Source: Candidatus Magasanikiibacteriota bacterium
Lineage (GTDB): Bacteria > Patescibacteriota > Patescibacteriia > Magasanikbacterales > GWA2-37-8
DNA: 40,082 nucleotides
Assembly (NCBI GenBank): GCA_943359595.1
Contig: CALRIA010000004.1
Coordinates: 1-40,082, forward strand
Reading direction: 5' to 3'
Part shown: positions 9,745 through 40,082 of the stretch, piece after piece
How the letters are laid out: each line of letters begins with the position of its first letter
Numbering within the stretch: position 1 is the first letter of the stretch
Made by a program: the position numbers and the translations under genes
The notes under the pieces: generated by a model
What the model saw: the letters and a program-made list of their open reading frames with translations, nothing else
What the model was told of the DNA's origin: nothing
Databases searched by the model: none

Positions 9745-9889
9745 AATATATTTTAACTAATAACCGTACATATATTGTAGTTATTTTACCTTATTACAAA
9801 ACTATATACAAGCTTATATTTTTATGATAAAATATTTTATAAGAACAAACAAAAAAAATGACTAAAAACTACACTTAAAATCAACAATT

Positions 9890-12147: not shown

Positions 12148-12163
12148 GCTGAAACAACTTTTT

Positions 12164-13972: not shown

Positions 13973-13977
13973 TTATT

Positions 13978-14484: not shown

Positions 14485-14485
14485 T

Positions 14486-14581
14486 ATGAAACACAAAACA
14501 ATAAAACAAATTTGGACAGTAATTGCCATAATCGGTATTTTGGCCATGGTTTTTTTTACAATTTTACCAATTTTCCAATAA
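14486..14581 (+). CDS. Unannotated 31-aa single-pass membrane peptide
   Basis: ATG 14486 to TAA 14581 encodes MKHKTIKQIWTVIAIIGILAMVFFTILPIFQ. It fills the gap with exactly 1 nt on each side. Confidence 0.7.
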   Translation: MKHKTIKQIWTVIAIIGILAMVFFTILPIFQ

Positions 14582-14582
14582 C

Positions 14583-14972
14583 ATGAAAATTCTGCGCCAA
14601 TATCAGCTAGACATTATTTTTCTTTTTTTTGCCTTGATCTTGATTATGTGGTCTTATTTTTATGGTTTAAGATATTTGGGAGTTGATCCACATAGATATG
14701 AATGGCTATTGGCTGTTCCATTATTATTTTTTTATGTCATTTATATCTTTAAAATTCGAAACAAAATTGCTATTGCCGATCGACGTAATCTTACCACCAA
14801 ATCTTTAGTGTATTGGATACTATTTGGAGTTTCTTTATTTTCCACATATGGTACTCCAATTCCAGCCAAAGATTATTGGTCACTCAATGCCCTATTTTTT
14901 ATTTTTACAATTTTTTTGGCCGATTCATATTGGGATTTTAAAAGCATCACTCTAAAAAATTTTAAAAAATAA
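14583..14972 (+). CDS. Hypothetical integral membrane protein (~4 TM)
   Basis: 129 aa with four hydrophobic aromatic-rich segments; operon-packed. Confidence 0.7.
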   Translation: MKILRQYQLDIIFLFFALILIMWSYFYGLRYLGVDPHRYEWLLAVPLLFFYVIYIFKIRNKIAIADRRNLTTKSLVYWILFGVSLFSTYGTPIPAKDYWSLNALFFIFTIFLADSYWDFKSITLKNFKK

Positions 14973-14973
14973 T

Positions 14974-16224: not shown

Positions 16225-16225
16225 T

Positions 16226-18010
16226 ATGTCAAAAAAATGGATAATTTCTCCCGCAGTACCAGATGAATTTTTAATTGCTCACCCAGAACTACCGTCAATA
16301 GTAGCGCGTTTGCTATACAATCGAAATATAAAAACTCAAGAACAGATTGACGAATTTTTAAATCCAGATTATTTACAAGACATTCATGATCCATTTTTAT
16401 TTAATGACATGGAAAAAGCGGTAGAAATTATTTTTTCACATATTAAAGAACAAAAAAATATCGTTGTACATGGCGATTACGATGCTGATGGAGTTTGCGC
16501 ATCCGCAACCATTGTTAGTTGTCTACAAAAAATTGGTGCACAAAATGTTTCGGTATTTTTACCACATCGAGAAACAGATGGATACGGACTAAACATGAAT
16601 ACAGTCAAAAATCTCAAAGAACAAAAAACTGATTTAATAATTACTTGTGACTGTGGAGTGAGCAATACGCCAGAGGTAAAATTGGCCAAACAACTTGGTA
16701 TGATGGTAATTATAACTGACCACCATTCAATTCCCGCCGAAATACCACCAGCCGACGCCATCATTCACCCCAAAATTCCCGATGAGAAATATCCAGACAA
16801 AGGCTTGTGTGGTGGAGCGGTCGCTTTTAAATTAGTTCAAGCCTTACTAAAAAAACATCAGGAGAAAAACGCCACATTACTTGATGGACAATCACATGAA
16901 GCATTTGAAAAGTGGCTACTGGATCTAGCAGCCATCGCCTCTATCGGCGATATGGTTCCACTAATCGGTGAATCCCGCACACTTACTCGTTACGGACTGA
17001 CCGTATTGAATAAGACTCACAATTTGGGATTAAAAAAATTGATGTTTGTCGCTGGCATATTGGATGAAAACGACCAACCTAAACGAGGAACAATCGGAGC
17101 ACATACCGTTGGCTTTCAGATTGTACCTCGTCTTAATGCCGCTGGGCGTATGGATCATGCTAATAGCGCATATGCTCTACTCATGGCCAAAGACGAACAT
17201 GGGGCGGAAAATTTGGCGTGGCAATTGAATCAAAATAATATTGATCGTCAAAAATTAACAGAAAATTTAGTAAACCAAGCAATTAAACAGATAAAAGACA
17301 CTGGCCAAGAAAAAAATCCAGCTTTATTCGCGTTCGCTGAAGATTGGCCAACTGGAGTACTAGGTTTAGTATCTGGTCGTCTCAAGGATATGTTTTATAA
17401 ACCATCATTGGCGATGGGGAAAAATAGTAGTGGAGAAATCGTTGGTTCAGGCCGTAGTATTTCTGAATTTAATCTTATTGCTACTATGCAAGAACGACCA
17501 GAATTTTTTGATAAATTTGGTGGTCACCCTCAAGCTTGTGGCTTTACTATAAAATCCAAAGAAACACTAGAAGAATTTAAAAAATTCTTAAATAAAAAAG
17601 TGCTCGAGGGAACCAAAGAAATTGAACTGGTACCACAAATTAATATTGATTCTATAGTTGATTTAGATGAAATAAATTGGAAAATGTATGATTTATTACA
17701 AAAATTTGAACCATTTGGAATGAATAATGAAGAACCGATCTATGCCGCTTATGGTTTAACTATAGTAAATATTGATCCAGTCGGACAAGACGGCAAGCAC
17801 TTACGCATGAATCTCAAACACAACTCTCAAACAATTAAAAAAACCATCGGATTTGGGCTGGGTGATATCACTAGGCATCCCGATGATTGGAAAAATAGCC
17901 TACATTCTGGGGATAAAATAGATATTGCATTCTGTATAAGTGTGAATGAATGGAACGGTAATCGAGAATTACAGATGACTATTCATGATATTAAAAAAAG
18001 CACCGAATAA
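16226..18010 (+). CDS. recJ: Single-stranded DNA exonuclease RecJ
   Basis: HGDYDADG, PHRETDGYG, ITCDCG, TDHH, PRLNAAGR, GSGRS, GGHPQACG, EPFG..N.EP. Confidence 0.97.
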   Translation: MSKKWIISPAVPDEFLIAHPELPSIVARLLYNRNIKTQEQIDEFLNPDYLQDIHDPFLFNDMEKAVEIIFSHIKEQKNIVVHGDYDADGVCASATIVSCLQKIGAQNVSVFLPHRETDGYGLNMNTVKNLKEQKTDLIITCDCGVSNTPEVKLAKQLGMMVIITDHHSIPAEIPPADAIIHPKIPDEKYPDKGLCGGAVAFKLVQALLKKHQEKNATLLDGQSHEAFEKWLLDLAAIASIGDMVPLIGESRTLTRYGLTVLNKTHNLGLKKLMFVAGILDENDQPKRGTIGAHTVGFQIVPRLNAAGRMDHANSAYALLMAKDEHGAENLAWQLNQNNIDRQKLTENLVNQAIKQIKDTGQEKNPALFAFAEDWPTGVLGLVSGRLKDMFYKPSLAMGKNSSGEIVGSGRSISEFNLIATMQERPEFFDKFGGHPQACGFTIKSKETLEEFKKFLNKKVLEGTKEIELVPQINIDSIVDLDEINWKMYDLLQKFEPFGMNNEEPIYAAYGLTIVNIDPVGQDGKHLRMNLKHNSQTIKKTIGFGLGDITRHPDDWKNSLHSGDKIDIAFCISVNEWNGNRELQMTIHDIKKSTE

Positions 18011-18395: not shown

Positions 18396-19247
18396 CTAGT
18401 TGGTAGCGCAGGCAGCACCAGCTGAAGCATTACCAGTAGCATCATAGCCGAATCCAGCCCCATAAGCTGCGCTAGCCAAGGTTGTGCCACATTCAGCTGG
18501 TGGGTTATTAAACGCAGCACAGATAGCTTGCTTAACTGCATCAGCAGTGCGGTTTACTCCATCTACTTGGGCACCATTGATTACTAGAGTTGGAGAACCC
18601 TGCACACCATATTTGATATTTAGGTCTTCATTGATTGGATAAACTGGATAACGACCAGATAGCCAAGTGGTTTGATCATTATATTTATCTAAAGTCTTAT
18701 ATTTAGCGTTTATAGCATTAACACAAGAACTTAGACTACCTTCAGACAATCCGGCTTGAGACAAACAGGCCTTATAATCATCTTTACCAGTAAAACATGT
18801 CAGGTAAGCTTGGTATTTAGCCGGTTGATTTTGTTCGATACAATATTGTCTAGTATTTTCTTCTATTTCTTTTAGACCATGCATCGCATAAGATACAAAT
18901 TTGATATCAATATCAGCTTTGTTTTTAAGTAAATTCCAAGCTGGCAAATAAGCTTTTTCCATCTGTAAACCAAATGGACAATAGGCCATAACGAATAACT
19001 CTACTTTCGGACGATCAGATTTTGTGACTGAAACTGGAGCAGAAGGTTGTGGTGGTTGAGCTTCCGGATCGGCAGTAGCCACTGGAGAAACCGAAGTAGA
19101 AAGGCCAGATTTATTATTTACTTTAAAATATAAACCTAACATTACTACAAAACCAATAGTACAAATAACTAAAATGCCGGCAACCAAGCCAACAAGCAAA
19201 GCACTCTTTGAATCTAGACTAGCAAAAAAAGATTTCTTCTGTTCCAT
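18396..19247 (-). CDS. Membrane-anchored thioredoxin-fold (DsbA-like) protein
   Basis: N-terminal TM helix, Pro-rich linker, VELFVMAYCPFG, cis-Pro loop GVQGSPTLVING, several additional Cys. Confidence 0.8.
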   Translation of the reverse strand: MEQKKSFFASLDSKSALLVGLVAGILVICTIGFVVMLGLYFKVNNKSGLSTSVSPVATADPEAQPPQPSAPVSVTKSDRPKVELFVMAYCPFGLQMEKAYLPAWNLLKNKADIDIKFVSYAMHGLKEIEENTRQYCIEQNQPAKYQAYLTCFTGKDDYKACLSQAGLSEGSLSSCVNAINAKYKTLDKYNDQTTWLSGRYPVYPINEDLNIKYGVQGSPTLVINGAQVDGVNRTADAVKQAICAAFNNPPAECGTTLASAAYGAGFGYDATGNASAGAACATN

Positions 19248-24892: not shown

Positions 24893-24904
24893 TAAATAAC
24901 AAAT

Positions 24905-24934
24905 AAAAAATCCTGTATCAACACAGGATTTTTT
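24905..24934. terminator. Bidirectional intrinsic terminator
   Basis: AAAAAATCCTGT-ATCAAC-ACAGGATTTTTT between convergent genes. Confidence 0.9.
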
Positions 24935-24937
24935 ATT

Positions 24938-26026
24938 TTATAATTCAATTACCGTTTGTTCACCAACTATCAATCGGTGAAATCCATCATTATTTTTTTT
25001 CTTTATCTGAACATTTCCGCCGACGATACTATCTTTTATTTTTAAATCGCAAATCAAATGACAGTTGGTCAAAATAATTGAATTAGCAATTTCTACACCC
25101 TCAATTATACTCCCACTACCGATAGTAACATTGGGAGATATAATACAATTTTTTAAGGTACAATTTTCACCTATGATTACTGGACCATTAATTTTAACAT
25201 CCTGATCAACGGTGGTTCCAACGCCGATTTTAACTTTACCAAAAATTTGTGCGCCACTAAGCACTTGACCCAAATTTTTAAATTCGCTCTCTGGTATTTC
25301 TTCTAATAGTAGCTGGTTAGCCAAAATTAAATCTATTGGCGCACCAGTGTCTTTCCACCAACCGGTAATTTCTTTATGCCCGACTTTGAAATTATTTTTT
25401 AAAAAATAGGAATGAATATCAGAAATTTCATACTCACCACGAGCGCTTTTATTTATTTTTTTAAAAGCATCAAAAAATACTTTCGGGCCATATAAATATA
25501 TTCCCGTAACGGCAAAATCATTGGGAGGATTTTTAGGTTTTTCGTGTACATCAATAAGATTGTTACTGCTATCAAAAATTGGCACACCAAAACGATTTGG
25601 ATCTGGAACTTTAGATAAAGCCAGCATGCAATCAAATTTGTTTTCAGCAAAATTATCCAACATTGGTTTGATGCTACCTAAAATAATATTGTCGGATAGA
25701 TAAAACATAAAAGGATCATCGCCAATAAATTTTTGTGCTTCGTTTACCACGTGAGCAATTCCTTGAGGGCCACCGGTTTGTTCAAAAAATTGAATTTTTA
25801 TACCCCAATGTCCGCCATCACCAATATGCTTTTGTAAATCAGTTTCACCAGGGTTGGTATTGATGAAAATCTCTTCAACCCCAGCTTCAACTGCCTTGGC
25901 AATAGCATGAAAAATCATTGGTTTGTTGGCCAAAGGAATTAAATGTTTATTCATAGTAGAGGTTACCGGACGCAATCTAGTCGCTCGGCCACCTCCGGTT
26001 AAAATTGCTTTTTTTATTTTTTGCAT
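24938..26026 (-). CDS. rmlA: Glucose-1-phosphate thymidylyltransferase, long form with C-terminal left-handed beta-helix
   Basis: ILTGGGRATRLRP.T..NKHLIP, GIAH, YLSDNI, AVTGIYLY, SARGEYEISD, GWWKDTG, hexapeptide repeats. ATG 26026 (MQKIKKAIL) preferred. Confidence 0.88.
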   Translation of the reverse strand: MQKIKKAILTGGGRATRLRPVTSTMNKHLIPLANKPMIFHAIAKAVEAGVEEIFINTNPGETDLQKHIGDGGHWGIKIQFFEQTGGPQGIAHVVNEAQKFIGDDPFMFYLSDNIILGSIKPMLDNFAENKFDCMLALSKVPDPNRFGVPIFDSSNNLIDVHEKPKNPPNDFAVTGIYLYGPKVFFDAFKKINKSARGEYEISDIHSYFLKNNFKVGHKEITGWWKDTGAPIDLILANQLLLEEIPESEFKNLGQVLSGAQIFGKVKIGVGTTVDQDVKINGPVIIGENCTLKNCIISPNVTIGSGSIIEGVEIANSIILTNCHLICDLKIKDSIVGGNVQIKKKNNDGFHRLIVGEQTVIEL

Positions 26027-26064
26027 ACATTTTTCGTCATTCTCGCGAAAACAGTAATCTAAAA

Positions 26065-27162
26065 CTACCAAATAATAATATATTTTACAACCTTCCAATA
26101 AAAATCCATTAACGGATTGGCAATATTGTCTAGAATCGGATTCTTTATACTAGCTTCATTAAATTCAACCTTGCCAACAAAAGTTTTTATCATTTCTTTA
26201 TCAGATATTTTACGAATACTTTGTATATATGTTCGTTTTTTTAACCACAATTTCCAACTGGATAATTTAAACCAATAAGCATAGGCCTTTAATTTTTCTT
26301 TGACCCAACCTTGTTTGGCGGCGAACAACAATAAACCAACCTCAAGAATTAGCCCCATCGGTAAAAATACTAATAAAGTTGGCCACTTGAAAAACATTAA
26401 CATCACACCCAAACGATTACGTTCGATATAATAAAATTTTATCTGATTACGACCAAAAGAATATTTGTGAAAAAACAAAGAATCAGATGCAACCATTATT
26501 TTATAGCCGGCGATTTTCAAACGAAAACTATATTCAATATCTTCATGATACATAAAAAAATCATGATCCCACAAACCATATTGACGCAATAGATCAGATC
26601 TCATTAAAACTGCTGCCCCACTAGAATAAGAAGTTTCGTAAACTTTTTCTAATTTTATATTATCTTTTTTGACGCGCAAATTATTACAAAAACCTAAACC
26701 TAAATAATGAAAAGAATTACCAGAACTATTTAACGAATCTGTTTCCGGGTAAAGCATTAAAAGTGACTGTACCGCTCCGACTGTTTTATCTTTTTCCATT
26801 ACATCAATCAACGGCTCCAAAAAGTTCGCCGCCACAAAACCATCATTGTTGTGAAAATAAATATAATCAAAACCATTATCCAGCGCCCACTTTATTCCTA
26901 CATTATTTCCACCGGAAAAACCAAGATTTTCTTTTTGAGGTAAAAGTGTAATATGCGGTAATTCGTTTCCAGACAACGACATTACATTTTCTTCCAAATA
27001 TCGCACCGACAAACCATGAATTGGGTGTGGATTGTCTACGACCACAAATTCCACTTTATCTTTTGGGTAAGTCATTTTCTTCAACGCTGATACCACATCG
27101 TCGATATATGGTTCGCAATGAAAAGATAAATAAACGATAGCTACTTTTGGAAATTGATTCAT
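26065..27162 (-). CDS. GT2 glycosyltransferase (rhamnosyltransferase-like)
   Basis: VVVDN, NLGFSGGNNVG, FHNND, SGAAVL, FFMYHEDIEYSFR. Confidence 0.9.
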   Translation of the reverse strand: MNQFPKVAIVYLSFHCEPYIDDVVSALKKMTYPKDKVEFVVVDNPHPIHGLSVRYLEENVMSLSGNELPHITLLPQKENLGFSGGNNVGIKWALDNGFDYIYFHNNDGFVAANFLEPLIDVMEKDKTVGAVQSLLMLYPETDSLNSSGNSFHYLGLGFCNNLRVKKDNIKLEKVYETSYSSGAAVLMRSDLLRQYGLWDHDFFMYHEDIEYSFRLKIAGYKIMVASDSLFFHKYSFGRNQIKFYYIERNRLGVMLMFFKWPTLLVFLPMGLILEVGLLLFAAKQGWVKEKLKAYAYWFKLSSWKLWLKKRTYIQSIRKISDKEMIKTFVGKVEFNEASIKNPILDNIANPLMDFYWKVVKYIIIW

Positions 27163-27165
27163 ATA

Positions 27166-28005
27166 TTAAACAGAATAATATTTATTATTTCCTTTCCACT
27201 TCCAAATATATTTTAACCAACTAACAAAATGAATACGAGCTAATTTATTTTTGAAGAAGGCTTTAAAAATACCTGGCACTTTTGCCGAGTCGCGAGCATG
27301 CGCATGAAAAATTTTAATGTCAGCCAAATAATAAACTGGCCAACCTTTTTCCCACATCCGGCGACACCAATCAGAATCTTCCATATACATAAAATAACGA
27401 TCATCAAAAAAACCCACTTGATCCGTTGCTTCTTTTCGCGCCATCATGACTGAACCCATCACCCAATCTACTGGACGAGTTTCGTTGTGATCAAAGTCTT
27501 TCATTAATAATCGGTCAGAATATTTTTGAATCCAAGCGTATTTTTTATCAAAATTTATTTGCTTTAACGGCTTAATAAAAATTGAAGGAAAATCAAAGCG
27601 ATAACAAGAATATTGTAACGAACCATCCATATTCAAAATTTTTGGTCCAATCATACCAATTTTTGGATGTTCATCCATATATTTTATCATACGTTCAATA
27701 GTATGGAAATTTTCTGGAATAATAGTGTCCGGATTAAGCGTCATATAATAACGAGCTTCCACTTGTGTAAACGCCATATTCAAACCGCGGCCAAAACCAA
27801 CGTTATCACCACAACTAAAATATTGAATGTTGGGAAACTTTTCTTTGAGCGCTTCTTCTACACCATCTTTATTTAATGAATTATCCGCCACAATAATTTT
27901 TACATCATAAGAACAATTCGCAATATCTTTGATAACCGAATCAAGCGCACGTAAAATGTCGTCTTTAGATAAAAAATTTAGAAATACTAGATTGACATCT
28001 TTCAT
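27166..28005 (-). CDS. GT2 glycosyltransferase (WbbL-like)
   Basis: IVADNS, NVGFGRGLN, LNPDT, DWVMGSVMM, FFDDRYFMYMEDSDWCRR. Confidence 0.9.
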   Translation of the reverse strand: MKDVNLVFLNFLSKDDILRALDSVIKDIANCSYDVKIIVADNSLNKDGVEEALKEKFPNIQYFSCGDNVGFGRGLNMAFTQVEARYYMTLNPDTIIPENFHTIERMIKYMDEHPKIGMIGPKILNMDGSLQYSCYRFDFPSIFIKPLKQINFDKKYAWIQKYSDRLLMKDFDHNETRPVDWVMGSVMMARKEATDQVGFFDDRYFMYMEDSDWCRRMWEKGWPVYYLADIKIFHAHARDSAKVPGIFKAFFKNKLARIHFVSWLKYIWKWKGNNKYYSV

Positions 28006-28006
28006 A

Positions 28007-29065
28007 TTAATTCCACCATTTTCTTAAATCTCTCCAACTTATTTTTTTTATTTTGTTAATCTGCACTCGTTTATTTTTTAAATCTACCATTCCCTGCCAT
28101 ACTTCTTTTAAACCAGCCAAAACCTTTCTATCAAAAAATAAAAAGTAAATAAACTTCTTTAATTCATACCATAAAATCCAAGGAAAATCAAGGGTCATAT
28201 TTTGCCAATATTCATTTTTATAGAGCGTGCGCAGATGGTTTTTATAGCTATGGTATTGAACCCATGGTGACTGATTTTTTCTGTTTTGCATTGCCGATCT
28301 ATCATCCATCTCTTTTGGACCAGCACCAGAGCGATCATGGTAAGCGACAGTATCAAGTAAAATAAACGATTTAAAACCAGCTTCTTGCAAACGATAAGAC
28401 AAATCAACATCTTCTTTATAAGCATGATAAAATTCGTCCAAAAATTGACCACCAGTAAAAGCCACCTGAGCAATAATACTACGACGAAACATAGGAAACG
28501 CTCCAGAAGCACCAAAAACTTCTAATGCTGAATTACTATCATTCTCGTAAAAACTTAAATCCGCTTTAATTGTAGCCCAATCCTGTTGAGTATATTGTTC
28601 TATCACTCGACGATTACGAAAAATTTTTAAACCCAACGCATCTATTTGATTGCTAAAACTTTTTTCTAAGCCTTCCGCGCTAATTTTGCTAAAATTCCAT
28701 TTCATTAATCGCGGTGATACCGCCGCCACTTCCTTATTTTTATCTAAAAAATTTACCATATTTTCTAAACAATCTGGCTGTAAATACATATCCTGATTTA
28801 ACAACAAAAAATATTCACTATCGGTATCGCGATAAGCCTGGTTGTGACCGCCAGCAAAACCATTGTTAGACTGATTAATAACCAGTTTATATGGGACAGA
28901 AAAATCTTCTAGCTCTTTTTTAATCAATTCAACTGTATTGTCTTTAGAATCATTATCTACAATATACAAAAACCAATCTTTAATAGATTGTTTACGCAAA
29001 GATTCAAATAAATATGGAATATATTTTTCGCCGTTCCAAACAACAAGATGTACGGATAATTTCAT
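28007..29065 (-). CDS. GT2 glycosyltransferase
   Basis: VVWNGEKYI, VDNDSKD, NNGFAGGHN, LLNQD, YKEDVDLSYRL. Confidence 0.9.
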   Translation of the reverse strand: MKLSVHLVVWNGEKYIPYLFESLRKQSIKDWFLYIVDNDSKDNTVELIKKELEDFSVPYKLVINQSNNGFAGGHNQAYRDTDSEYFLLLNQDMYLQPDCLENMVNFLDKNKEVAAVSPRLMKWNFSKISAEGLEKSFSNQIDALGLKIFRNRRVIEQYTQQDWATIKADLSFYENDSNSALEVFGASGAFPMFRRSIIAQVAFTGGQFLDEFYHAYKEDVDLSYRLQEAGFKSFILLDTVAYHDRSGAGPKEMDDRSAMQNRKNQSPWVQYHSYKNHLRTLYKNEYWQNMTLDFPWILWYELKKFIYFLFFDRKVLAGLKEVWQGMVDLKNKRVQINKIKKISWRDLRKWWN

Positions 29066-29081
29066 TTTGATTCAAATATTA

Positions 29082-30041
29082 TTATTTAACCTCACGACCA
29101 TCAATTTTTAATGCTTCACGACCATTAGCCTGTATATATTCTTGTGATAATTGATATACTAATTCTAAATTAATATCGCATTCTTGTTGTTGTCCATTTT
29201 CACGACGCAAAATTAATTTTACTATTTTTTCCCCTTGAACGTCGTTGAATACTTTTAAATCCCAACTATCTAAAATTTTTAAACTACCGCCAATCTCCGT
29301 CAAAGAATCAAAACCAACAATTTTTTTATTATTTATTTCCCTTTCAATAACATATTTTAAAAATGCCTCAGTCGAAGTCTTATGCCCGGCACTAACCAGA
29401 TCAACTTTGGCACCGCTTTCCATAAAATTTGGCATGTTTATAAAACGATTAATTTTAAAAGCAACAGCAGCAGCGCATTCACGAGGTGACGGAGTATCTT
29501 TGTCAGGGCGTTGATCATCAAAAGTAAGATACCATTCCAAAGCTGGTTCTTCGGCATATTCAGCCACTTCTTCTTGCTGATCTGGAGTTAAATCATCAAA
29601 ATTTATATTACCAAAATGTTCTGAAATATACTTTTGACGAATTGGCTCAGATATATCATCATATTTTTTGTTAAAGTCCGCACTACCTGGCATTGCTGGT
29701 AGAGCAAAAAAAGCATTAAATTTTCCTTTTTGTTTTAAAATTTGTGGGCTTACTTCAGCTCCAGCAAAAGCCTTTTCTAAAGTCTGTCTAGTTCTATCTG
29801 AGGTAGTAGCATAACTTTTATCTATATTTCTACCGGTCAAATTTTTAGCACCAAAATCAAAAGCTCTAGATTCACCTGCCTCAGAAATATTAGCCGACGA
29901 TATTCCGCCAGCATCGGCAGAAAAAACTCTACCAGAGCTTTTTTGGCTATGTCTCAAGAATGTAAATCTAGCCTCTGTGTCTCGCCCAATCTTTTCTTCA
30001 GGACTACGGCTAAAATCTAAACCTGGTTTTCTCTCACTCAT
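29082..30041 (-). CDS. Histidine phosphatase superfamily-like protein
   Basis: FTFLRHSQK (RH[G/S] motif), SDRTRQTL (S...R..QT motif), LVSAGHK (late His motif). Confidence 0.65.
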   Translation of the reverse strand: MSERKPGLDFSRSPEEKIGRDTEARFTFLRHSQKSSGRVFSADAGGISSANISEAGESRAFDFGAKNLTGRNIDKSYATTSDRTRQTLEKAFAGAEVSPQILKQKGKFNAFFALPAMPGSADFNKKYDDISEPIRQKYISEHFGNINFDDLTPDQQEEVAEYAEEPALEWYLTFDDQRPDKDTPSPRECAAAVAFKINRFINMPNFMESGAKVDLVSAGHKTSTEAFLKYVIEREINNKKIVGFDSLTEIGGSLKILDSWDLKVFNDVQGEKIVKLILRRENGQQQECDINLELVYQLSQEYIQANGREALKIDGREVK

Positions 30042-30060
30042 AAAATTAAATAATAAATAA

Positions 30061-31128
30061 TTAAATTATTTCCTCTTCTAAAACCTCTTTAGCAAAAATT
30101 CTTAAACCAAAACTATCTATATATTCTTCAACACTCCCCATCATTTTACCTTGAGGCAACAAACTTTTTAACAACGGCTTATTATGGAAACGATCTACCA
30201 TCGCATCAGTTGGGCGCCAATTAATATCTGCAACATCAAATAATTTTTTGAGTTGATAACACTCTTGAGTAGCCACCATATTTTTTAATTCTTCAAAATT
30301 CTTTTTTCTAATTTCTAAATAAATTTCTTCAGCTTTAACAGCAAATTCCTGAATCAATTGGTCAACCTGATCGCCATTTATTTCTTTACCATCAGCCTCA
30401 ATATAATATTGGCTTAGTCCAGAAATTGGACTACCAGAAGAAGTCACAGTATGACAGCCAACACATAATATTTTCCATTCTACCCCACGATATAAACCAT
30501 AAATTTTTAATGATTTAATAGATGGTAGAAATTTATTATCCCAAATTTCTTTTGGTTGTAAATCTGGAAAATCTCTAATCAACAAAGAACAATCGTTATA
30601 CAAAAATGGTCCATAGGCATCCCAAGCAAAGTCTGTAACCAAATCATTGTACAATCCATGCACCAAAGAACCAGCTGTGGTAATAAGTTTGCCAATCTGT
30701 TTGGCTGCCAAAACATTTCCTTCTTGCCAATTAATTTTTTCTATAATATTTTTAACTTCAATATTAGAAAATAACGGATTAGAAATTAATCCAAAAGGAT
30801 CACTCGGACAAGCTTCCGCCAACATACGAGCAAAAAAATTGGCTACTATTTTGTAATCATTCGCATTTTTTTGTTTCAATCCCATATAACTGGGTATCAA
30901 TTTTTGCAAAATTGCACGCATGCTAGATGGTGTTGGCAATAGTTCTTTGATCTCTGCAAAATGTTTGTTGTCTAGATCCAATTTTTTTATCACCTGTGCA
31001 GTTCTTTCTACCCATAGATCATACCATAAAGGAAAGAAGTGAAAAAAATCTAAAGGTTGAAAAGCATCTATGGTATTACCAGCATAAAGAGAAAAAGAAC
31101 CAACGGCGAAATTTTTAATCCATGGCAT
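30061..31128 (-). CDS. Hypothetical protein of unknown family, coupled to the PEP swivel-domain gene
   Basis: Long soluble ORF. Preferred ATG 31128 overlaps the upstream gene's last 14 nt and follows AAGGAG. No family recognised. Confidence 0.75.
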   Translation of the reverse strand: MPWIKNFAVGSFSLYAGNTIDAFQPLDFFHFFPLWYDLWVERTAQVIKKLDLDNKHFAEIKELLPTPSSMRAILQKLIPSYMGLKQKNANDYKIVANFFARMLAEACPSDPFGLISNPLFSNIEVKNIIEKINWQEGNVLAAKQIGKLITTAGSLVHGLYNDLVTDFAWDAYGPFLYNDCSLLIRDFPDLQPKEIWDNKFLPSIKSLKIYGLYRGVEWKILCVGCHTVTSSGSPISGLSQYYIEADGKEINGDQVDQLIQEFAVKAEEIYLEIRKKNFEELKNMVATQECYQLKKLFDVADINWRPTDAMVDRFHNKPLLKSLLPQGKMMGSVEEYIDSFGLRIFAKEVLEEEII

Positions 31129-31450
31129 ATACTTCTCCTTTCTGGCCATCAACCAAAATAGTCTGGCCATTTTTAATCTTACTGGTACCTATTTTTGTGT
31201 TGACTACGCAAGGAATACCCATTTCACGACTCAATATAGCCGGATGTGAAGTGATCCCTCCTAAATCGCTAACTATAGCAGCAGCTTTAATCATAGCCTG
31301 CACCATCGTAGGATCGGTTAATGTAGTCACCAAAATTTCTCCTTCTTCAAAAGAAGCAAGACTATCTCCTGGCAAAAAAATTCTAGCTTTACCCTGAGCT
31401 ACTCCGGCACTAGCTGGCATTCCACTCACTATAATTTTATTATCTGACAT
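31115..31450 (-). CDS. Stand-alone PEP-utilising enzyme mobile (phospho-His swivel) domain
   Basis: GMPASAGVAQGKAR, GEILVT..TDP, GGITSHPAILSREMGIPCVV (His69), VDGQKGEV; only 111 aa. Confidence 0.9.
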   Translation of the reverse strand: MSDNKIIVSGMPASAGVAQGKARIFLPGDSLASFEEGEILVTTLTDPTMVQAMIKAAAIVSDLGGITSHPAILSREMGIPCVVNTKIGTSKIKNGQTILVDGQKGEVYAMD

Positions 31451-31455
31451 ACAAA

Positions 31456-32307
31456 TTAATTTATAAATTTATCATTTATCCAAGCCATTGCGATACCAAC
31501 TGGTCGCAGTATTGCTATCCATATCCATTTATACCACGGTTCCCATTTTTGAAAATATTGCAACATGCTTTTGGTAAAATTTTTTTGTTTCCAAAGAGTT
31601 GTACGCTGTTTAAAACTTTGACCAATATAATCTATACAAGAAATTACGGGGGTATGGACTACTTTGTAACCAAGTTTTTTCACTTCTCTACAAATATCTA
31701 CATCTTCAAACCAAATAAAATAACGCGGATCAAAGGCAAAACCTAATTTTTCAAAAACTTCACGACGCATGATCATAAATGAACCACGTATTGAATCCAC
31801 TTCTTGTTCTTTGTCAGCGTCAAAACCTTTAAACATATATCTGTTTAGAATACCGGTAAAAATATGTGGCAGTTTCAAAATTATTGCCAGTTGATCAAAA
31901 ATATCAGGAAAACGACGCGGTTGGGCATCCGCATTAAGAATACCATGTTCATCCACCAATCTACAACTTGCCAGACCAACCTCGCCATGCACTTGCATCC
32001 AAGATAACATTTCATCTAAACTACCAACTTGTACACGCATATCTGGATTTAAAAATAACAAAAATTCACCGTCGCTGATTTTAGCCGCCATATTATTAGC
32101 CGCACTGAAACCAATATTTTGTTTGTTTTCAATCAATTTAACCCAAGGATATTTTTCTTTAATAATTTTTATTGTATTGTCCGTCGAACCATTATCTACA
32201 ACAATCTCTTCAAACGAAATACTTTGACAGCCGTTTTTTACGGAATCAATTTGCTCACCAACTAATTTTTCTGAATTCCAAGTAACGGTAATAATTGAAA
32301 GATTCAT
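31456..32307 (-). CDS. GT2 glycosyltransferase (WbbL-like)
   Basis: VVDNGSTD, NIGFSAANN, FLNPD, RGSFMIMRR, FDPRYFIWFEDVDICR. Confidence 0.9.
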   Translation of the reverse strand: MNLSIITVTWNSEKLVGEQIDSVKNGCQSISFEEIVVDNGSTDNTIKIIKEKYPWVKLIENKQNIGFSAANNMAAKISDGEFLLFLNPDMRVQVGSLDEMLSWMQVHGEVGLASCRLVDEHGILNADAQPRRFPDIFDQLAIILKLPHIFTGILNRYMFKGFDADKEQEVDSIRGSFMIMRREVFEKLGFAFDPRYFIWFEDVDICREVKKLGYKVVHTPVISCIDYIGQSFKQRTTLWKQKNFTKSMLQYFQKWEPWYKWIWIAILRPVGIAMAWINDKFIN

Positions 32308-32323
32308 AACTATTCAAAAAAAA

Positions 32324-33394
32324 TTATTTTTTCAATTCATCTTTAAAAAAATCCACAAAAGGAATCGCAGTTGGATTTATCCATTGCAACAAAGCACCAT
32401 AATAGCTAACATAACTTCCAAAAACTAAAGTCTCACAAGCTTGTAAAATTTTGTCTTTTTCTTGAGAAATATATGACCAGTATTTAATTTTATTTTTATC
32501 CAAAACTTTTTTGGTAATATCAAAACGTTTTTGGATATGAACATCGTACAGAGTTGATTCCAACAACACAAATCCTAGATTATTTTTATTACTTTCTGGA
32601 TAAAACATCCCTTCCATCAAATGATGATTAAGTTCAGGAATCAAAAAATATCCAGCAAAACGTTTGGCATTTTCATTGGTTTGGTTGGCAGCAGCATGAG
32701 CATTGCCAGCAAGGTGTTCGGCTCCGATATACCACACGCTTCTATCAAATAAATTTTTGGCCATTTCTTTGGCCAAATTTCTAGCAATATTTACTACACC
32801 AAATTCAGTATTATATTTTTCTAAAACTAAAACAATATTTTTAATATCTTTTGGTGATAATTTTATCAGCCCCGCTTTAGCAAATAAAACCATCTGCCCT
32901 ACTATCGAATAACCCAAACCCATACGTGGCGAACCACAAGGATTGTTGTTAGTTGAAAAAATTAAACCAGGAATTTTTGATGCAGAAGAAAATTTGGCCA
33001 AATCACCACCAGAAGTAATAATGGCCAACTTAGCTTTTCGTTTTTGTGCTTCTTTCATAGCAAATATCGGTTCTTCAGTCGTGCCAGAATAGCTAGAAAC
33101 TAGCACAAAACTATTTTTATCTACATATTCCGGTACATGGTAGCCGTTCACTATTTCTAACGGTGCTGTTAATTTATTAAAAAAAACGGATTTTAAAATA
33201 TTAGCGCCAAGAGTGGATCCACCCATACCAAGCACTACAATATTTTTTGCTTTTTTATAATAAGTGGGAATTTTTATATTTTTAGCACAATACAAAACTT
33301 CTTTCACTTGAGCAGAAAGCAATTCTAAGCTACCAAGCATGTTTTGAGAATCCAATTTTTTAATTTCTTCGATATTATCTAAAATATTATTCAT
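32324..33394 (-). CDS. Bifunctional phosphoglucose/phosphomannose isomerase (SIS-domain PGI/PMI)
   Basis: GMGGSTLG, SYSGTTEEP, SPRMGLGY, NENAK, PELNHH. Confidence 0.87.
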   Translation of the reverse strand: MNNILDNIEEIKKLDSQNMLGSLELLSAQVKEVLYCAKNIKIPTYYKKAKNIVVLGMGGSTLGANILKSVFFNKLTAPLEIVNGYHVPEYVDKNSFVLVSSYSGTTEEPIFAMKEAQKRKAKLAIITSGGDLAKFSSASKIPGLIFSTNNNPCGSPRMGLGYSIVGQMVLFAKAGLIKLSPKDIKNIVLVLEKYNTEFGVVNIARNLAKEMAKNLFDRSVWYIGAEHLAGNAHAAANQTNENAKRFAGYFLIPELNHHLMEGMFYPESNKNNLGFVLLESTLYDVHIQKRFDITKKVLDKNKIKYWSYISQEKDKILQACETLVFGSYVSYYGALLQWINPTAIPFVDFFKDELKK

Positions 33395-33398
33395 AAAA

Positions 33399-34256
33399 TT
33401 AATTTAAATATTCATTTAATGCTTCCTGCCAATTACGCTGAATTGGCAATTTAGTATTTAATAATTCTGAATACATTGGGCGCTTGGCTGATCGAGGAAA
33501 TTTATCACCAGAAACTGGAGTGATGCCAATATTAATTTTTTTAATTTTAAAAATTTCTTTAGCCCATTCATACCAGCTACAAACCCCGCTATTACTGCCG
33601 TGATAAATTCCAAATGGTCTTTCATCCTCGACAACACTGCGGGTCAGTTTTGCTAAATCTGGAGCATACGTAATACAACCTATTTCTTCATCCACCAAAT
33701 CTAGATGAGTTTTTCCGCCTTCAGTAGCTAGCCAAATCATTGTATCAACAAAACTTTTCTTAGCTCCGATACTAGAAGCAGGTTTACCAAATAATTTGGA
33801 TAATCTTATTATATAAAATTTTCCATCAACCTCTAAAGCCTGTTGTTCACCAATCGCTTTGGTTTCTCCATATTTATTTATTGGACTTACCTGATTGTCC
33901 TCTTTGTATCCTTCACCATCACTACCTTTAAAAACATAGTCTGAAGAAAAATGAACAAAAATTGATTCCAGCTCTTTACAAATACCAGCCAAATTCCCTA
34001 CTGCTTCACCATTTATTTTCTTTGCTAATTCAAATACACTTTCATCTTCTTCTATTTTATCCACTGCATTATACGCCACTGCATTTATTACAATATCCGG
34101 ATGCAAATCAGAAATTTTTGAAGCAGCAGCGATAAAATCAGCTATATCCAATTCTTCTTTGTCCCAATCAAAGACTTCGTATTTATGAATAATAAATTCA
34201 CTGACCAATTCTTGGCCAAGCATTCCCTTTGACCCTAATATTAAAACTTTTGGCAT
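33399..34256 (-). CDS. rmlD: dTDP-4-dehydrorhamnose reductase
   Basis: LGSKGMLG, NAVAYNAVD..E, HFSSDYVF, PINKYGETK (YxxxK), AKRPMYSEL. ATG 34256 preferred. Confidence 0.92.
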   Translation of the reverse strand: MPKVLILGSKGMLGQELVSEFIIHKYEVFDWDKEELDIADFIAAASKISDLHPDIVINAVAYNAVDKIEEDESVFELAKKINGEAVGNLAGICKELESIFVHFSSDYVFKGSDGEGYKEDNQVSPINKYGETKAIGEQQALEVDGKFYIIRLSKLFGKPASSIGAKKSFVDTMIWLATEGGKTHLDLVDEEIGCITYAPDLAKLTRSVVEDERPFGIYHGSNSGVCSWYEWAKEIFKIKKINIGITPVSGDKFPRSAKRPMYSELLNTKLPIQRNWQEALNEYLN

Positions 34257-34257
34257 A

Positions 34258-34665
34258 TTATAATTCAGCAACTATTTTTTTATATTCCTCATAATTTACA
34301 ATATAATCACTTCTCTCAGGATTATAATTAGTAGAAGACAAAGCCAACAGAACACAATCTGCAGAGGCGTCTTTAAAACCATGCCACACATAATTATCTA
34401 CCAAAATTCCATCTTCTGGACCATGCATCAATAAATTTTCGATACCATTTCCACAATCAATAACAGCCGTTATTATTCCACGCTGACAAACAAATAACTC
34501 TTGTTCCTGTTTATGACAATGTTGGCCAGTCGGTTTGGTAAAATCAGTAATAAAATAGATACGTTTTACATCCCAATTTATAAAATCTTTCAACTCTACT
34601 GGAGTTAAAGAAACTCCGGTATTTGTAAAAGTCTTAAATTTAAATTGTTTAAAATTTAATTCCAT
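34258..34665 (-). CDS. FdtA/QdtA/WxcM-like cupin (nucleotide-sugar ketoisomerase family)
   Basis: VKRIYFI, TGQHCHK (HxH), VWHGF, LLALSS..Y...SDYIVNYEEY. Confidence 0.8.
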   Translation of the reverse strand: MELNFKQFKFKTFTNTGVSLTPVELKDFINWDVKRIYFITDFTKPTGQHCHKQEQELFVCQRGIITAVIDCGNGIENLLMHGPEDGILVDNYVWHGFKDASADCVLLALSSTNYNPERSDYIVNYEEYKKIVAEL

Positions 34666-34725
34666 ATTATTTAAAATAATTTATGGGGGGGGTGGGCGTT
34701 TTGAACAGACGCCAAAACTGTTTGT

Positions 34726-34962
34726 TCAACGATTCTTGCGCTGCTTTGGAGTAATTTTAGCAGGAAAAAGCGGAACTACACTAGCGGAGTTTCCAAAAGA
34801 TTGGACAGATGGAGACGACGGTTCTGGTTCCTTCCAGTGAGGGCTTAAGGTATAGTTGCCACCGTTAGCATTGCACGAATCACACTCCCGAAAGAACTCT
34901 TGGTTCTTTCCATCATCAATATGTCCAGTGACAAACGAACACCCACAGACGAATCTACTCAT
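34726..34962 (-). CDS. Small Cys-containing orphan protein (78 aa from ATG 34962)
   Basis: MSRFVCGC...ECDSC... preceded by tandem GGAGGT; the region is GC-rich relative to its neighbours. Confidence 0.55.
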   Translation of the reverse strand: MSRFVCGCSFVTGHIDDGKNQEFFRECDSCNANGGNYTLSPHWKEPEPSSPSVQSFGNSASVVPLFPAKITPKQRKNR

Positions 34963-35014
34963 CGCAACCTCCGAACCTCCAATTTTTGCCACGTTCAAAG
35001 AGTGAATTACCCTC

Positions 35015-35049
35015 TGAAAAAATAAAATGACTACAGCTATTCATTTTAT
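35015..35049 (-). terminator. Probable terminator after rmlB
   Basis: ATAAAATGA (35022-35030) / TCATTTTAT (35041-35049) AT-rich stem, followed by a T tract on the minus strand. Confidence 0.5.
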
Positions 35050-35073
35050 CATTTCAAAATATAATTTTTTGTA

Positions 35074-36087
35074 TTATTTAATATGATTATTTATTTCATC
35101 TTTCTTGGCCCAAATTTTTTCAACCCAATCCAAATGATTTAGATACCAATCAACGGTTTCTTTTAAACCCTGTTCAAATTTATCTCTAGTATAATCAGGC
35201 CTCCAACCCAAAGATAAAATTTTGGTAGAATCAATTGCATAACGACGATCGTGACCTGGCCTGTCCTGCACATATTCGATAAAACTTTCATCTTTACCCA
35301 TCATTTTTAAAATCATATGAGTAATTTCCATATTACTTCGCTCATTGTCAACGCCGATATTGTATACACCACCAGCTTCTCCTTTTTCTAACAATAAATC
35401 TAAAGCAGAAGCGTGATCATTTACATGGATCCAATCGCGCACATATAGACCATCTCCATACATTGGCACTTTTTCATTTTTCATTAAACGCATCACAAAA
35501 AACGGAATCAATTTTTCTGGATATTGAAATGGTCCATAATTGTTGGAACAATGCGTCACCACTACCGGCACTTTATGTGTGACAAAATAAGCATGACACA
35601 TCAAATCACCACCGGCCTTAGCGGCGGCATATGGCATATTAGGATTGATTGGAGTAAGCTCTGAAAATTTTTCTGGGCTATCCAAATGCAAAGCACCGTA
35701 TACTTCGTCTGTCGAAACATTAACCATTTTGGCCAAATTATTTATTCGAACCGCATCAAGCAACATTTGTACTCCTAAAGTATTAGTCAACACAAAATCT
35801 TTACAACCACCATGAATAGATCTGTCCACATGGGTTTCAGCCGCAAAATTTATCAGATGAGTAATGTCGTATTTTTTTATTGTTTTATTAATTTTATCCA
35901 AATCAATAATGTCACCCTGGACAAATTGATAACGAATGTTCTTTTCTATATCTTTTAAATTATCTAGGTTACCAGCATACGTTAATTTATCAAAATTTAC
36001 TATCTCACGATCTGGATATTTATTTAGATAATAATGTATAAAATTTGAACCAATAAATCCCGCTCCTCCGCAAACTAATAATTTCAT
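35074..36087 (-). CDS. rmlB: dTDP-glucose 4,6-dehydratase
   Basis: GGAGFIGSNF, DKLTYAGNL, FAAETHVDRS, STDEVYG, YAAAK, SNNYGPFQYPEKLIP, DRPGHDRRYAID. ATG 36087 preferred. Confidence 0.96.
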   Translation of the reverse strand: MKLLVCGGAGFIGSNFIHYYLNKYPDREIVNFDKLTYAGNLDNLKDIEKNIRYQFVQGDIIDLDKINKTIKKYDITHLINFAAETHVDRSIHGGCKDFVLTNTLGVQMLLDAVRINNLAKMVNVSTDEVYGALHLDSPEKFSELTPINPNMPYAAAKAGGDLMCHAYFVTHKVPVVVTHCSNNYGPFQYPEKLIPFFVMRLMKNEKVPMYGDGLYVRDWIHVNDHASALDLLLEKGEAGGVYNIGVDNERSNMEITHMILKMMGKDESFIEYVQDRPGHDRRYAIDSTKILSLGWRPDYTRDKFEQGLKETVDWYLNHLDWVEKIWAKKDEINNHIK

Positions 36088-36130
36088 AATTTCAGATCTT
36101 AACAATTATTAATATATTTTAAAAAAATAA

Positions 36131-38009: not shown

Positions 38010-40082
38010 TTATGGTGTAATGGACAAGCCATCATACCAAATTATTGGATCCCAAAATAATTTTACATTCATAAAATTTCTAGAATCCATATTATTAAGA
38101 ATTAGGTCTGGAAATGGAGCCAACGTGCCAGAATAAATACCCGTATCTAAATTCATCAAATTTGTATTATTTAGCATGAGCTCACCGCTATTAATTTTTA
38201 TACCATCGGTATGATCAAAATTTGGTTTTGAACCAATATAGCCAATGGTACTATTATTAACGCCAACCGTTGAATTGGTTATTTCCAAAGCATTGCCTGG
38301 CGCTCTACTGCCTAACAATTGAGAATTTTGTAATTCTAGTTCACCATTGTTTACTGTTATCATTCCCTGATAACCATCGCTACCGATTGAACCGCGTCCA
38401 CCAGATATATTGGCATTTTTAAAAATACCTTTACCACCATCAAAAATAATTCTTCCCCAATAATAATTTTCTAGTAATTGAACTGGTCTAATGTCTACCG
38501 GTTCATCTTCTGCTCCATTTAAATTTAATGTACCTTTTACAAAAATATTGGCATATTCTGGCATTTTAATGTTTGTTCCAGCTGAAATATCAACTGTAAC
38601 AGCAGGTTGAATCGTAATATTTTGCCATGTCATCGGAATATCTTTAGTAACAACTAGATCAGAAGTGATGTCCGCCTGATCAATCGCAATATTATTGGTA
38701 ACATTGTTACTAAAATTTATTTGCAACATTTTTGGCCAAATATTTTTTATATAAACCGGACCATTAGGATTGGAGAAATTATTTAAATTAATATTTTCTA
38801 ATTCTAAACTACCATCATAATTTTCTACCGCCAACTGACCATTTTTAAAATCAGTATTTTTAATGGTTGAATTTGATTTTGATAAATAAATTGTAGTATC
38901 GCCATTATCACTAAAAATAGAATTATTAATATTCAGTATGGCACTATCACTTCGCACTGCCTGAGACACCAATGAGTCCCACATATTAGCCCCAGGTGCT
39001 CTAAAAGCTTTGCCAGCATAACGCAAGTCTAGACCAGACAAGCTCGCTGTAGAACTAGCATACAACAACAAGCCCTGCCAATCTTTAGATTGAGGATTTC
39101 CAGAACGAGAACCGATAATAGCTTTATTTCCTTCGTCTTCAAAATTAGTATCTCTACCCGACGTTATAATTACTTTATTACTATCAGAACCATTAATATT
39201 TAAATTTCCTTTAATATCAACTTTAGAATCTGGATAATAAGTTTTTATTACAACCCCTGGATCAACATTTAAAGTTTTACCAACTGGAATTTCATAATAA
39301 GTTAAAATATAAGGATAATCACTTTTTTTCAAAGTGCGATTAACCTCCACTTGGCGACTCTTGAGAACAATTGAACCAAAATTTGATTGTTTTGGTGAAC
39401 CGTTGAGCGAAATGTCGTCACCACCGCCATCGACTTTACCTTCGAATCTTGGACCTTGGTTTGTTTGCCAATTGGTAGATGTATTACCAGATAAACGAGA
39501 ATTAATTTTTTCCATTGAGGAATAAGTTGTAGTTGAACCAGCGAACCAACCTCCACTATTATTTACTTCATCCACCAATTGGTTGCTTCCATCAAATAAA
39601 CGCAAACGCTCACCGCTGTTTTTTAAGGCTCCAGAATATATAATATCCGCTGAAATTTCATTGACTGTTCTATCATCTGTACGTTCAAATAAATAATAAC
39701 CATTTTTAGGAATAATTCGATTGATAATTTTACCAATACTAATTTCTTTATCACCTATCATTAGCTTCCACCATTTAGAAGTGTTAGTAGCAGAAAATAA
39801 ATTAATATCTTGATTGGTATTATTATAAAGTTCAATATACTCATCTTGGTCAGTGGCCGCCGAAGTCCCAGCCCAGGCAATTTCGTTTATTACCACATCA
39901 GGAGCTGGTGGTAATGGCTCAATGATAATCGTGGAGGTTGTAGAGGTAACTGGTGAGACTAAGATAGTCGTGGTGGCGACATCAACTGTCGTTGAAGAAA
40001 CTACACTTGATGTAGTAACAATTATAATCGAGGATGAAGTATTGATTGTCGAGGTTGTCAAAACTGTTAAAACTGGCAAAGT
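38010..40082 (-). CDS. Partial (5' end beyond the window) large surface protein: Thr/Ser-rich linker, lamin tail domain, right-handed beta-helix repeats
   Basis: Frame is open to the window edge; VVINEIAWAGT...DEYIELYN and LKNSGERLRLFD (LTD); two 'T.T..PG...K...KG.L...G' beta-helix modules. Confidence 0.85.
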   Translation of the reverse strand, partial: TLPVLTVLTTSTINTSSSIIIVTTSSVVSSTTVDVATTTILVSPVTSTTSTIIIEPLPPAPDVVINEIAWAGTSAATDQDEYIELYNNTNQDINLFSATNTSKWWKLMIGDKEISIGKIINRIIPKNGYYLFERTDDRTVNEISADIIYSGALKNSGERLRLFDGSNQLVDEVNNSGGWFAGSTTTYSSMEKINSRLSGNTSTNWQTNQGPRFEGKVDGGGDDISLNGSPKQSNFGSIVLKSRQVEVNRTLKKSDYPYILTYYEIPVGKTLNVDPGVVIKTYYPDSKVDIKGNLNINGSDSNKVIITSGRDTNFEDEGNKAIIGSRSGNPQSKDWQGLLLYASSTASLSGLDLRYAGKAFRAPGANMWDSLVSQAVRSDSAILNINNSIFSDNGDTTIYLSKSNSTIKNTDFKNGQLAVENYDGSLELENINLNNFSNPNGPVYIKNIWPKMLQINFSNNVTNNIAIDQADITSDLVVTKDIPMTWQNITIQPAVTVDISAGTNIKMPEYANIFVKGTLNLNGAEDEPVDIRPVQLLENYYWGRIIFDGGKGIFKNANISGGRGSIGSDGYQGMITVNNGELELQNSQLLGSRAPGNALEITNSTVGVNNSTIGYIGSKPNFDHTDGIKINSGELMLNNTNLMNLDTGIYSGTLAPFPDLILNNMDSRNFMNVKLFWDPIIWYDGLSITP

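Follow-up and report, generated by a model that had tools for sequence, protein, structure and literature searches.

A stand-alone phosphohistidine swivel protein, a new domain family and a histidine phosphatase-fold partner in a patescibacterial glycan operon: a putative split phosphotransfer enzyme

Organization of the three-gene locus

Swivel-histidine enzymes form a small set of architectures comprising phosphoenolpyruvate (PEP) synthase, pyruvate phosphate dikinase (PPDK), enzyme I of the phosphotransferase system (PTS), rifampin phosphotransferase (RPH) and phenol-type dikinases. Here we describe a locus on a 40,082-nt stretch of DNA from a Candidatus Magasanikiibacteriota bacterium (GenBank assembly GCA_943359595.1, contig CALRIA010000004.1, positions 1 to 40,082 of the forward strand; the whole stretch is called the window below), at which a free-standing swivel protein, a 355-residue protein of a new family and a protein of the histidine phosphatase superfamily are encoded. 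These three proteins appear, on a modest balance of probability, to be the components of a split phosphotransfer enzyme of the PEP synthase (swivel-histidine) type with a new substrate domain.

The trio consists of three co-oriented open reading frames (ORFs) on the minus strand at 29082-31450, flanked on both sides by genes for family 2 glycosyltransferases (GT2), as identified from the ORF list and Pfam (Table 1). The swivel gene comes first, 5 nt after the upstream GT2 gene, and overlaps by 14 nt the gene for the 355-residue protein, from which the last gene, that of the histidine phosphatase-like protein, is separated by 19 nt; a further 16 nt lead to the downstream GT2 gene. This layout, including coordinates, strand, gaps, overlap and an AAGGAG element, reads from the sequence exactly as in a preliminary description of the window.

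Table 1. Features of the locus and of its surroundings in the window.
Feature	Position	Strand	Evidence
Stand-alone phospho-His swivel (PEP-utilizer mobile) domain protein, 111 aa	31450..31115	-	PF00391, E=4.8e-25
His69 codon CAT, predicted phosphocarrier histidine, motif GGITSH	31246-31244	-	Read from sequence, in GGITSHPAILSREMGIPCVV
Translational-coupling junction: AAGGAG (31140-31135), ATG (31128-31126), 14-nt overlap (31128-31115)	31140..31115	-	Sequence
355-aa protein (from MPWIKNF), new family and fold, candidate second-substrate (acceptor) domain	31128..30061	-	No family match; AlphaFold2, fusions
319-aa divergent His-phosphatase-superfamily protein with large helical insertion (~residues 121-206)	30041..29082	-	AlphaFold2 and Foldseek
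Upstream GT2 glycosyltransferase (context only)	31456..32307	-	PF00535, E=1e-21
Downstream GT2 glycosyltransferase (context only)	28007..29065	-	PF00535, E=1.3e-23
dTDP-6-deoxyhexose/glycan operon enclosing the trio	24901..36105	-	Pfam and terminator scan

The swivel protein and the 355-residue protein as one unit

The swivel protein scored 87.4 bits against PF00391, compared with a gathering cut-off of 23.1, and covered positions 1-72 of the 72 in the profile; the domain is thus complete, and it stands alone in the window. Together with the GGITSH motif, this match confirmed the presence of a swivel with intact TSH and His69. The orthologous swivel ORFs whose sequences were inspected share the motif GG(I/V)T(S/A)H, and a T/SxxGGxxxH motif has been described for swivel domains (PMC12167813). 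The best NCBIfam match was to PEP synthase (NF005057, positions 353-462, E=3e-34). Models of PTS enzyme I were matched in the swivel segment only (positions 176-227), and no other enzyme I domain, neither the HPr-binding helical subdomain nor the PEP-binding TIM barrel, was found in the window among the ORFs scanned. Free swivel ORFs from different lineages encode 108-112 residues and are 60-72% identical.

A total of 37 loci were examined, of which 27 are in GTDB genomes and nine on contigs fetched by protein or pattern, the last being the window itself; the adjacency counts for the phosphatase and for ATP-grasp given below were taken over the approximately 33 loci that are non-redundant. In all 35 loci for which upstream DNA was available, the 355-residue gene is either directly preceded by a swivel gene or fused to one. 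The two genes are separate in 30 of these loci and fused in the other five; 25 of the 30 have a stop/start overlap of exactly 14 nt, as in the window, where the AAGGAG stands 6 nt ahead of the ATG of the 355-residue gene. Fusions of swivel and 355-residue domain account for 17 of 151 family representatives and share at most 33-67% identity with one another; in P0105, for example, the swivel is joined in frame to the 355-residue domain through a linker of about five residues. Together, the swivel and the 355-residue protein are one conserved functional unit.

From the conserved linkage, the 14-nt overlap and the fusions it follows that the swivel is not a decayed ppsA fragment, an origin that would have undone the preliminary description. 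A broken ppsA was rejected on three grounds, namely the conserved 108-112-residue ORF found across lineages, the conserved 14-nt junction and the lack of an ATP-grasp remnant nearby.

A second, paralogous pair of swivel and 355-residue-like protein (about 25% identity) adjoins the first at L005 (6774-8213, fused), L013 (11106-12448) and L028 (11083-12445); copies of the module have therefore arisen and diverged within genomes.

A new domain family

The sequence of the 355-residue protein had no match in Pfam, NCBIfam, PADLOC or among PDB sequences, in agreement with its first description as a protein of no recognisable family, and literature searches returned no description of such a family. 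A reading of the module as a defence system was rejected, the protein having no PADLOC match. Its AlphaFold2 model, with a predicted local distance difference test (pLDDT) score of 94.3 and a predicted template modelling (pTM) score of 0.92, is composed of a helical N-terminal part, a six-stranded sheet and C-terminal helices. Foldseek searches with this model returned nothing at E<=0.001 from the PDB (best E=0.23, TM<=0.15) and no match from BFVD (best E 0.06, TM<=0.18). By Pfam, NCBIfam and Foldseek, the domain showed neither a match to a TIM barrel or other PDB fold nor similarity to PEP-utilizers_C.

The family is large. A word-indexed search turned up 123 homologues with lengths near 355 residues, originating from Patescibacteria wherever a source was named, and an exhaustive profile search recovered 386 clusters at 50% identity, 109 of them with E<=1e-30. 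The polar residues R71, D110, Y160, D162, R/K185 and H226 are conserved over 126 domains of the wider family, as are G173, W196 and W304. The set of conserved Arg, Asp, Asp, Lys/Arg and His would be compatible with a phosphoryl-transfer or ligand site.

ATP-grasp fusions and the position of the new domain

No ATP-grasp or PEP-binding domain had been noticed in the window, and none was found: PPDK_N was not detected by tblastn over the whole 40 kb, and PEP-utilizers_C and pyruvate-kinase domains were not found by Pfam searches of the large ORFs, small ORFs not having been scanned. Fusions found in relatives name a candidate donor. P0307 (771 residues) is composed, from N- to C-terminus, of PPDK_N, swivel and a 355-residue-type domain; over PPDK_N and swivel it aligns with positions 94-479 of the PEP synthase model NF005057 (E=5e-131), and it carries the 355-residue-type domain in place of the C-terminal PEP/pyruvate domain of that enzyme. 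The same architecture was seen as an intact ORF, 67% identical to P0307, on a second metagenome contig (L037). In P0174, which belongs to a different subfamily (about 36% identical to the L001 domain), a 355-residue-type domain is fused to PPDK_N. The fusions for which the preliminary description had suggested a search thus exist to swivel, to ATP-grasp and to both. In addition, at L001 and L010 a PPDK_N gene begins at the stop of the 355-residue gene or within a few bases of it, and at L022 one lies 2.2 kb from the module.

In a dikinase, the swivel connects two substrate sites. If ATP-grasp is taken as the donor site, the second-substrate site must be the new domain, and the fusions place the 355-residue protein at the position of the second-substrate domain of a dikinase.

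Other unusual architectures were met at and beyond these loci. In the Moraniibacteriota genome that holds L001, the module is directly followed by two giant ORFs (9077-13642 and 13486-16872) that encode 1521 residues with PPDK_N and two swivels, and 1128 residues with three swivels, respectively; the swivels are spaced by stretches of 330-410 residues without a Pfam match, and such multi-swivel proteins are unusual. Elsewhere, a domain of about 335 residues, termed N, stands at the position of ATP-grasp in proteins of the order N-swivel-355-residue-type domain (P0242 and P0249) or N-355-residue-type domain (P0208, P0228 and P0241). Copies of N are 30-46% identical to one another and occur in none of the fetched loci; N had no match in Pfam or NCBIfam, and none to the profiles of ATP-grasp, swivel, phosphatase or the 355-residue family.

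The histidine phosphatase-fold partner

The 319-residue product of the third gene scored 20.5 bits against PF00300, just under the cut-off of 21.7, and 12 of its 44 homologues bear a precomputed PF00300 match. Its AlphaFold2 model (pLDDT 90.1) gave 231 PDB matches at E<=1e-3 in Foldseek, the top 50 of which all belong to the histidine phosphatase superfamily and include histidine acid phosphatases, dPGM/BPGM, RosC and GpgP; no SixA entry was among the 50 matches listed. Neither the residues R30-H31 (29954-29949), R83 and H220 (29384-29382) nor an acidic helix in the helical insertion (E157, E161 and E165) vary among 33 sequences. The protein, first noticed for its RH motif, is thus a member of this superfamily by fold and by its R-H/R/H residues, and for the same two reasons it is probably catalytically competent.

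The same phosphatase family adjoins the module in 16 of the 33 non-redundant loci; when all proven and putative histidine phosphatase-like genes are counted, 28 of these loci have one nearby. The commonest order is phosphatase, swivel, 355-residue protein; the phosphatase gene comes last only in the lineage of the window. The arrangement recurs in dozens of unrelated contigs and is for that reason far beyond chance, which answers the doubt whether the three genes co-occur elsewhere. The phosphatase is also present beside ATP-grasp (L001, L010 and L022, the last of which has a canonical PF00300 neighbour) and is therefore no substitute for the donor.

Ten further loci carry a different upstream protein of 233-282 residues, here called the X233/X245 family, which is marked by RH in its N-terminal part, one invariant Arg and the motif SHFE, replaced by LNFE in one subtype. 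In a profile search of the PDB these proteins gave sub-threshold matches only, 12 of the top 13 being members of the superfamily, which is suggestive of a putative relationship to histidine phosphatases. Two subtypes can be told apart (L002, 6875-7576, and relatives): X245 has SHFE, CHFE or THFE, and X233 has LNFE, with Asn at the expected second catalytic His. The X233 type, if a histidine phosphatase relative at all, may be inactive or altered. At L037, a 289-residue ORF (5132-6001) overlaps by 4 nt the start of the ATP-grasp-swivel-new-domain gene and contains the motifs QQHGKT, GRRAEQTA and DTHGD, reminiscent of histidine phosphatases, with no significant profile match.

Proposed mechanism and its significance

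A split enzyme of the dikinase type, as put forward in the preliminary description, is supported by the conserved linkage and by the swivel and ATP-grasp fusions, as far as computation can tell. The swivel and the 355-residue protein would be made at a ratio of about 1:1 through translational coupling and would probably form a complex. Within it, His69 of the free or loosely bound swivel would take up a phosphoryl group and deliver it to a ligand held by the 355-residue protein, whose new fold would replace the PEP/pyruvate domain of PEP synthase as the second-substrate site; we infer this direction of phosphate flow. The donor would be an ATP-grasp (PPDK_N) domain, fused or adjacent in some relatives and here presumed to be encoded outside the window and to act in trans. 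The histidine phosphatase-fold protein would be a dedicated third component; it may hydrolyse the phosphorylated product, or may strip the phosphorylated swivel as SixA does NPr. In the lineage of the window, the cassette would have been inserted into a dTDP-6-deoxyhexose/GT2 glycan operon, so that a sugar or glycan precursor may serve as its substrate there.

Several observations weigh against this mechanism. ATP-grasp is found within 10 kb in only three of the approximately 33 non-redundant loci and nowhere in the 40-kb window; the donor in the genome of the window is for this reason an inference, and its action in trans an assumption. The phosphatase partner is absent from five loci (L018, L020, L023, L026 and L035), and the similarity of X233/X245 to the phosphatase family was not significant in hhalign, so that these proteins are graded as putative relatives only. 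The genomic contexts of the module are heterogeneous. Finally, the sequencing runs that match the window are of lake-water metagenome DNA only, and no RNA runs were found.

The novelty of the system would lie in a candidate second-substrate domain that comprises at least 386 sequence clusters, belongs to no Pfam family and matches neither a solved nor a viral fold, and in a free-standing swivel protein with a recurrent histidine phosphatase partner. The hosts of the module, Patescibacteria and at least one archaeon, have a reduced and poorly understood metabolism, and most of their conserved unknown genes offer no functional handle. The present module offers a concrete, testable hypothesis, with three proteins that are small and soluble, one catalytic histidine and a donor domain to which natural fusions point. 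Knowing the substrate could bring to light a phosphorylated metabolite or a glycan modification that is new, and would establish the founding member of a new domain family.

Comparison with known phosphotransfer systems

The module resembles PEP synthase and PPDK. Its swivel is closest to that of PEP synthase, the order from swivel to second-substrate domain is shared, and in P0307 and L037 a PpsA-like ATP-grasp and a swivel are carried in one chain with the new domain C-terminal to them. In contrast to these enzymes, however, the C-terminal TIM barrel is replaced by an unrelated domain without a PDB match, the parts are separate with no PPDK_N in the window, and a histidine phosphatase-fold partner is added. 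PTS enzyme I differs in that its swivel is flanked by the HPr-binding helical subdomain and the PEP-binding TIM barrel, neither of which was found among the ORFs of the window that were scanned.

The L-glutamine kinase Cj1418 of the Campylobacter capsule phosphoramidate pathway is a single protein of ATP-grasp and swivel encoded in a surface-glycan locus. The likeness to the window lies in a swivel-histidine kinase being encoded within such a locus, as is generally known for Cj1418; we know of no counterpart of the new domain or of the phosphatase in that system. A kinase coupled to a phosphatase of the histidine phosphatase fold acting on the same metabolite is also found in 6-phosphofructo-2-kinase/fructose-2,6-bisphosphatase, which is an analogy only, the kinase fold and mechanism being unrelated to the module.

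Dikinases in separately encoded parts have been described as two-component systems, namely HpeHI, CreHI and phenylphosphate synthase PpsAB (PMC12167813). As proposed for the module, the swivel histidine of these enzymes shuttles phosphate to a small-molecule site, and their ATP-grasp is a separate protein (PMC12167813), which recalls the adjacent PPDK_N gene of L001 and L010. Unlike the module, in which the swivel is free or N-terminal, these enzymes and RPH have it C-terminal to a domain of the RIF-binding type; the RPH structures cited in PMC12167813 were not among the listed Foldseek matches of the 355-residue model. The module would therefore work like PEP synthase/PPDK and the two-component small-molecule dikinases but belongs to neither, since the C-terminal TIM barrel and the RIF-binding-type domain were both tested for and are absent.

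SixA is a phosphohistidine phosphatase acting on a PTS phosphocarrier (PMC7948535, PMC6282199), and in the SixA-NPr pair the carrier is discharged from His to His and then to water (PMC7948535). The module shares with this pair the association of a histidine phosphatase-superfamily enzyme with a small phospho-His carrier. Unlike SixA, the protein of the window has 319 residues and a large helical insertion, and its closest folds are those of histidine acid phosphatases, dPGM, RosC and GpgP.

Alternative explanations

An explanation that we consider unlikely is that the 355-residue domain is the donor site: like the C-terminal domain of enzyme I, it would bind PEP or another high-energy phosphoryl compound and phosphorylate His69 without ATP-grasp, and the swivel would then hand over its phosphate, for instance to the phosphatase-fold protein, whose catalytic His would receive it for mutase-like priming or hydrolysis. 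About 30 of the 33 loci have no ATP-grasp within 10 kb, yet most have a histidine phosphatase-like gene; the homologous position in PEP synthase is a reversible PEP/pyruvate site, with which the architecture of P0307 agrees equally well; the swivel comes closest to that of PEP synthase; and His-to-His transfer onto an enzyme of the superfamily is documented for SixA. The domain, however, bears no resemblance to the TIM barrel of PEP-utilizers_C or to other known PEP-binding folds, five loci lack the phosphatase partner, and the ATP-grasp fusions and adjacencies point to an ATP-dependent donor for at least some members.

A broader conjecture, held with similar reserve, makes the swivel the diffusible phospho-His carrier of a minimal PTS-like relay without ATP-grasp, shared by bacteria of the candidate phyla radiation (CPR) and DPANN-type archaea. 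The 355-residue and phosphatase-fold proteins would serve as docking stations: at one of them phosphate would be drawn from PEP or a phosphoester, and at the other a sugar or glycan precursor would be phosphorylated under the control of a TrmB sugar regulator. Such a relay, if real, would amount to more than a split dikinase and would represent a new kind of phosphotransfer system.

It is improbable that the trio is an ATP-independent relay in which the phosphatase-fold enzyme takes phosphate from a phosphomonoester and hands it through the free swivel to an acceptor on the 355-residue protein (net X-P + Y -> X + Y-P). The three components do co-occur without ATP-grasp in most loci, and to our knowledge all enzymes of the histidine phosphatase superfamily form a phospho-His intermediate. 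HpeH alone moves phosphate between phosphorylated product and substrate through its swivel (PMC12167813). Nevertheless, phosphatase and adjacent ATP-grasp coexist at L001, L010 and L022 and are hence not complementary, none of the 151 representatives was seen to join the phosphatase to the swivel or to the 355-residue domain, and an uphill transfer from a monoester through an N-P bond to a second ester is without precedent in such a protein pairing.

Slightly less probable still is a regulatory phosphorelay, with the swivel acting like HPr or NPr, the 355-residue protein as a sensor or effector dependent on phospho-His, the phosphatase resetting the system and TrmB as its output or input. The divergent TrmB regulator beside the module in at least 11 loci, the archaeal one included, and the known resetting of phosphocarrier proteins by enzymes of the SixA type would suit such a role, but a single chain of ATP-grasp, swivel and new domain resembles an enzyme and not a relay, the conserved polar core of the 355-residue domain is typical of a catalytic or ligand site, and the cassette also lies within biosynthetic operons that have no regulator.

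That the adjacency is meaningless, with the swivel as a ppsA remnant beside two unrelated genes, would accord with the window having no detected ATP-grasp (tblastn for PPDK_N) or PEP-binding domain (Pfam on large ORFs), but it is contradicted by the comparative data, namely the conserved free swivels, the 14-nt overlap, the many independent fusions and the occurrence in bacteria and an archaeon, and is scarcely credible.

Genomic context and distribution

The operon that encloses the trio is ordered RmlB-like, FdtA-like, RmlD, SIS/PGI-like, GT2, the trio, three GT2 and nucleoside triphosphate (NTP)-transferase, as assigned by Pfam, and ends in a 17-bp hairpin terminator (24938-24901, terminator scan). 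This layout recurs in 79%-identical relatives from two other samples (L032 and L033). Polysaccharide genes also surround the module at L026, with a flippase and two GT4 genes directly upstream, and at L019 and L031, where a HIT-family (nucleotide hydrolase/transferase) gene immediately follows the 355-residue gene (11083-11496 and 719-1132, respectively) and Rml genes lie 1.6-5 kb further downstream. Such a context is thus confined to three lineages, that of the window, that of L026 and that of L019/L031, and from these three a carbohydrate-related substrate seems plausible. At most other loci the module stands among unrelated housekeeping genes, and a divergently transcribed TrmB-family regulator adjoins it in at least 11 loci, one of them archaeal. 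The idea of a glycan precursor as substrate, raised in the preliminary description, thus finds limited support, the glycan-operon setting being real but lineage-specific.

Members of the 355-residue family were found in Patescibacteria and in at least one archaeon. The contig of L035, archaeal by its genes for proteasome, exosome, Rpp14, eIF2-alpha, Nop10, L44e and S27e, carries at 6437-9377 a divergent TrmB gene, a 204-residue ORF and a 458-residue fusion of swivel and 355-residue-type domain; the module is therefore common to CPR bacteria and archaea. Profile searches yielded no family assignment for the 204-residue ORF or for the 289-residue ORF of L037.

The remaining genes of the window, which encode a Clp ATPase, an RNase J-like protein, MurJ, LepA, RecJ, an MraY-like protein and RsmH, belong to housekeeping and envelope functions. 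Three window ORFs, at 14974-16224 (416 aa), 18396-19247 (283 aa) and 9890-10531 (213 aa), had no Pfam match at E<=1e-5. A 689-residue ORF at 38010-40079, which stops 3 bases short of the window end, gave as its sole Pfam signal a sub-threshold Lamin Tail Domain (31.5 bits against a cut-off of 34.3).

A gene of the DUF3865/Haem_oxygenas_2-like type (iron-containing redox enzyme) lies near the module at L034 (9952-10773), L016 (6029-6802) and L022 (7904-8710). The module proteins of L007, L008, L019 and L022, which come from GTDB third-party annotation (TPA) records titled 'uncultured Gammaproteobacteria', are 50-56% identical to those of Patescibacteria; the gene content of these four loci looks CPR-like, and the titles may be wrong.

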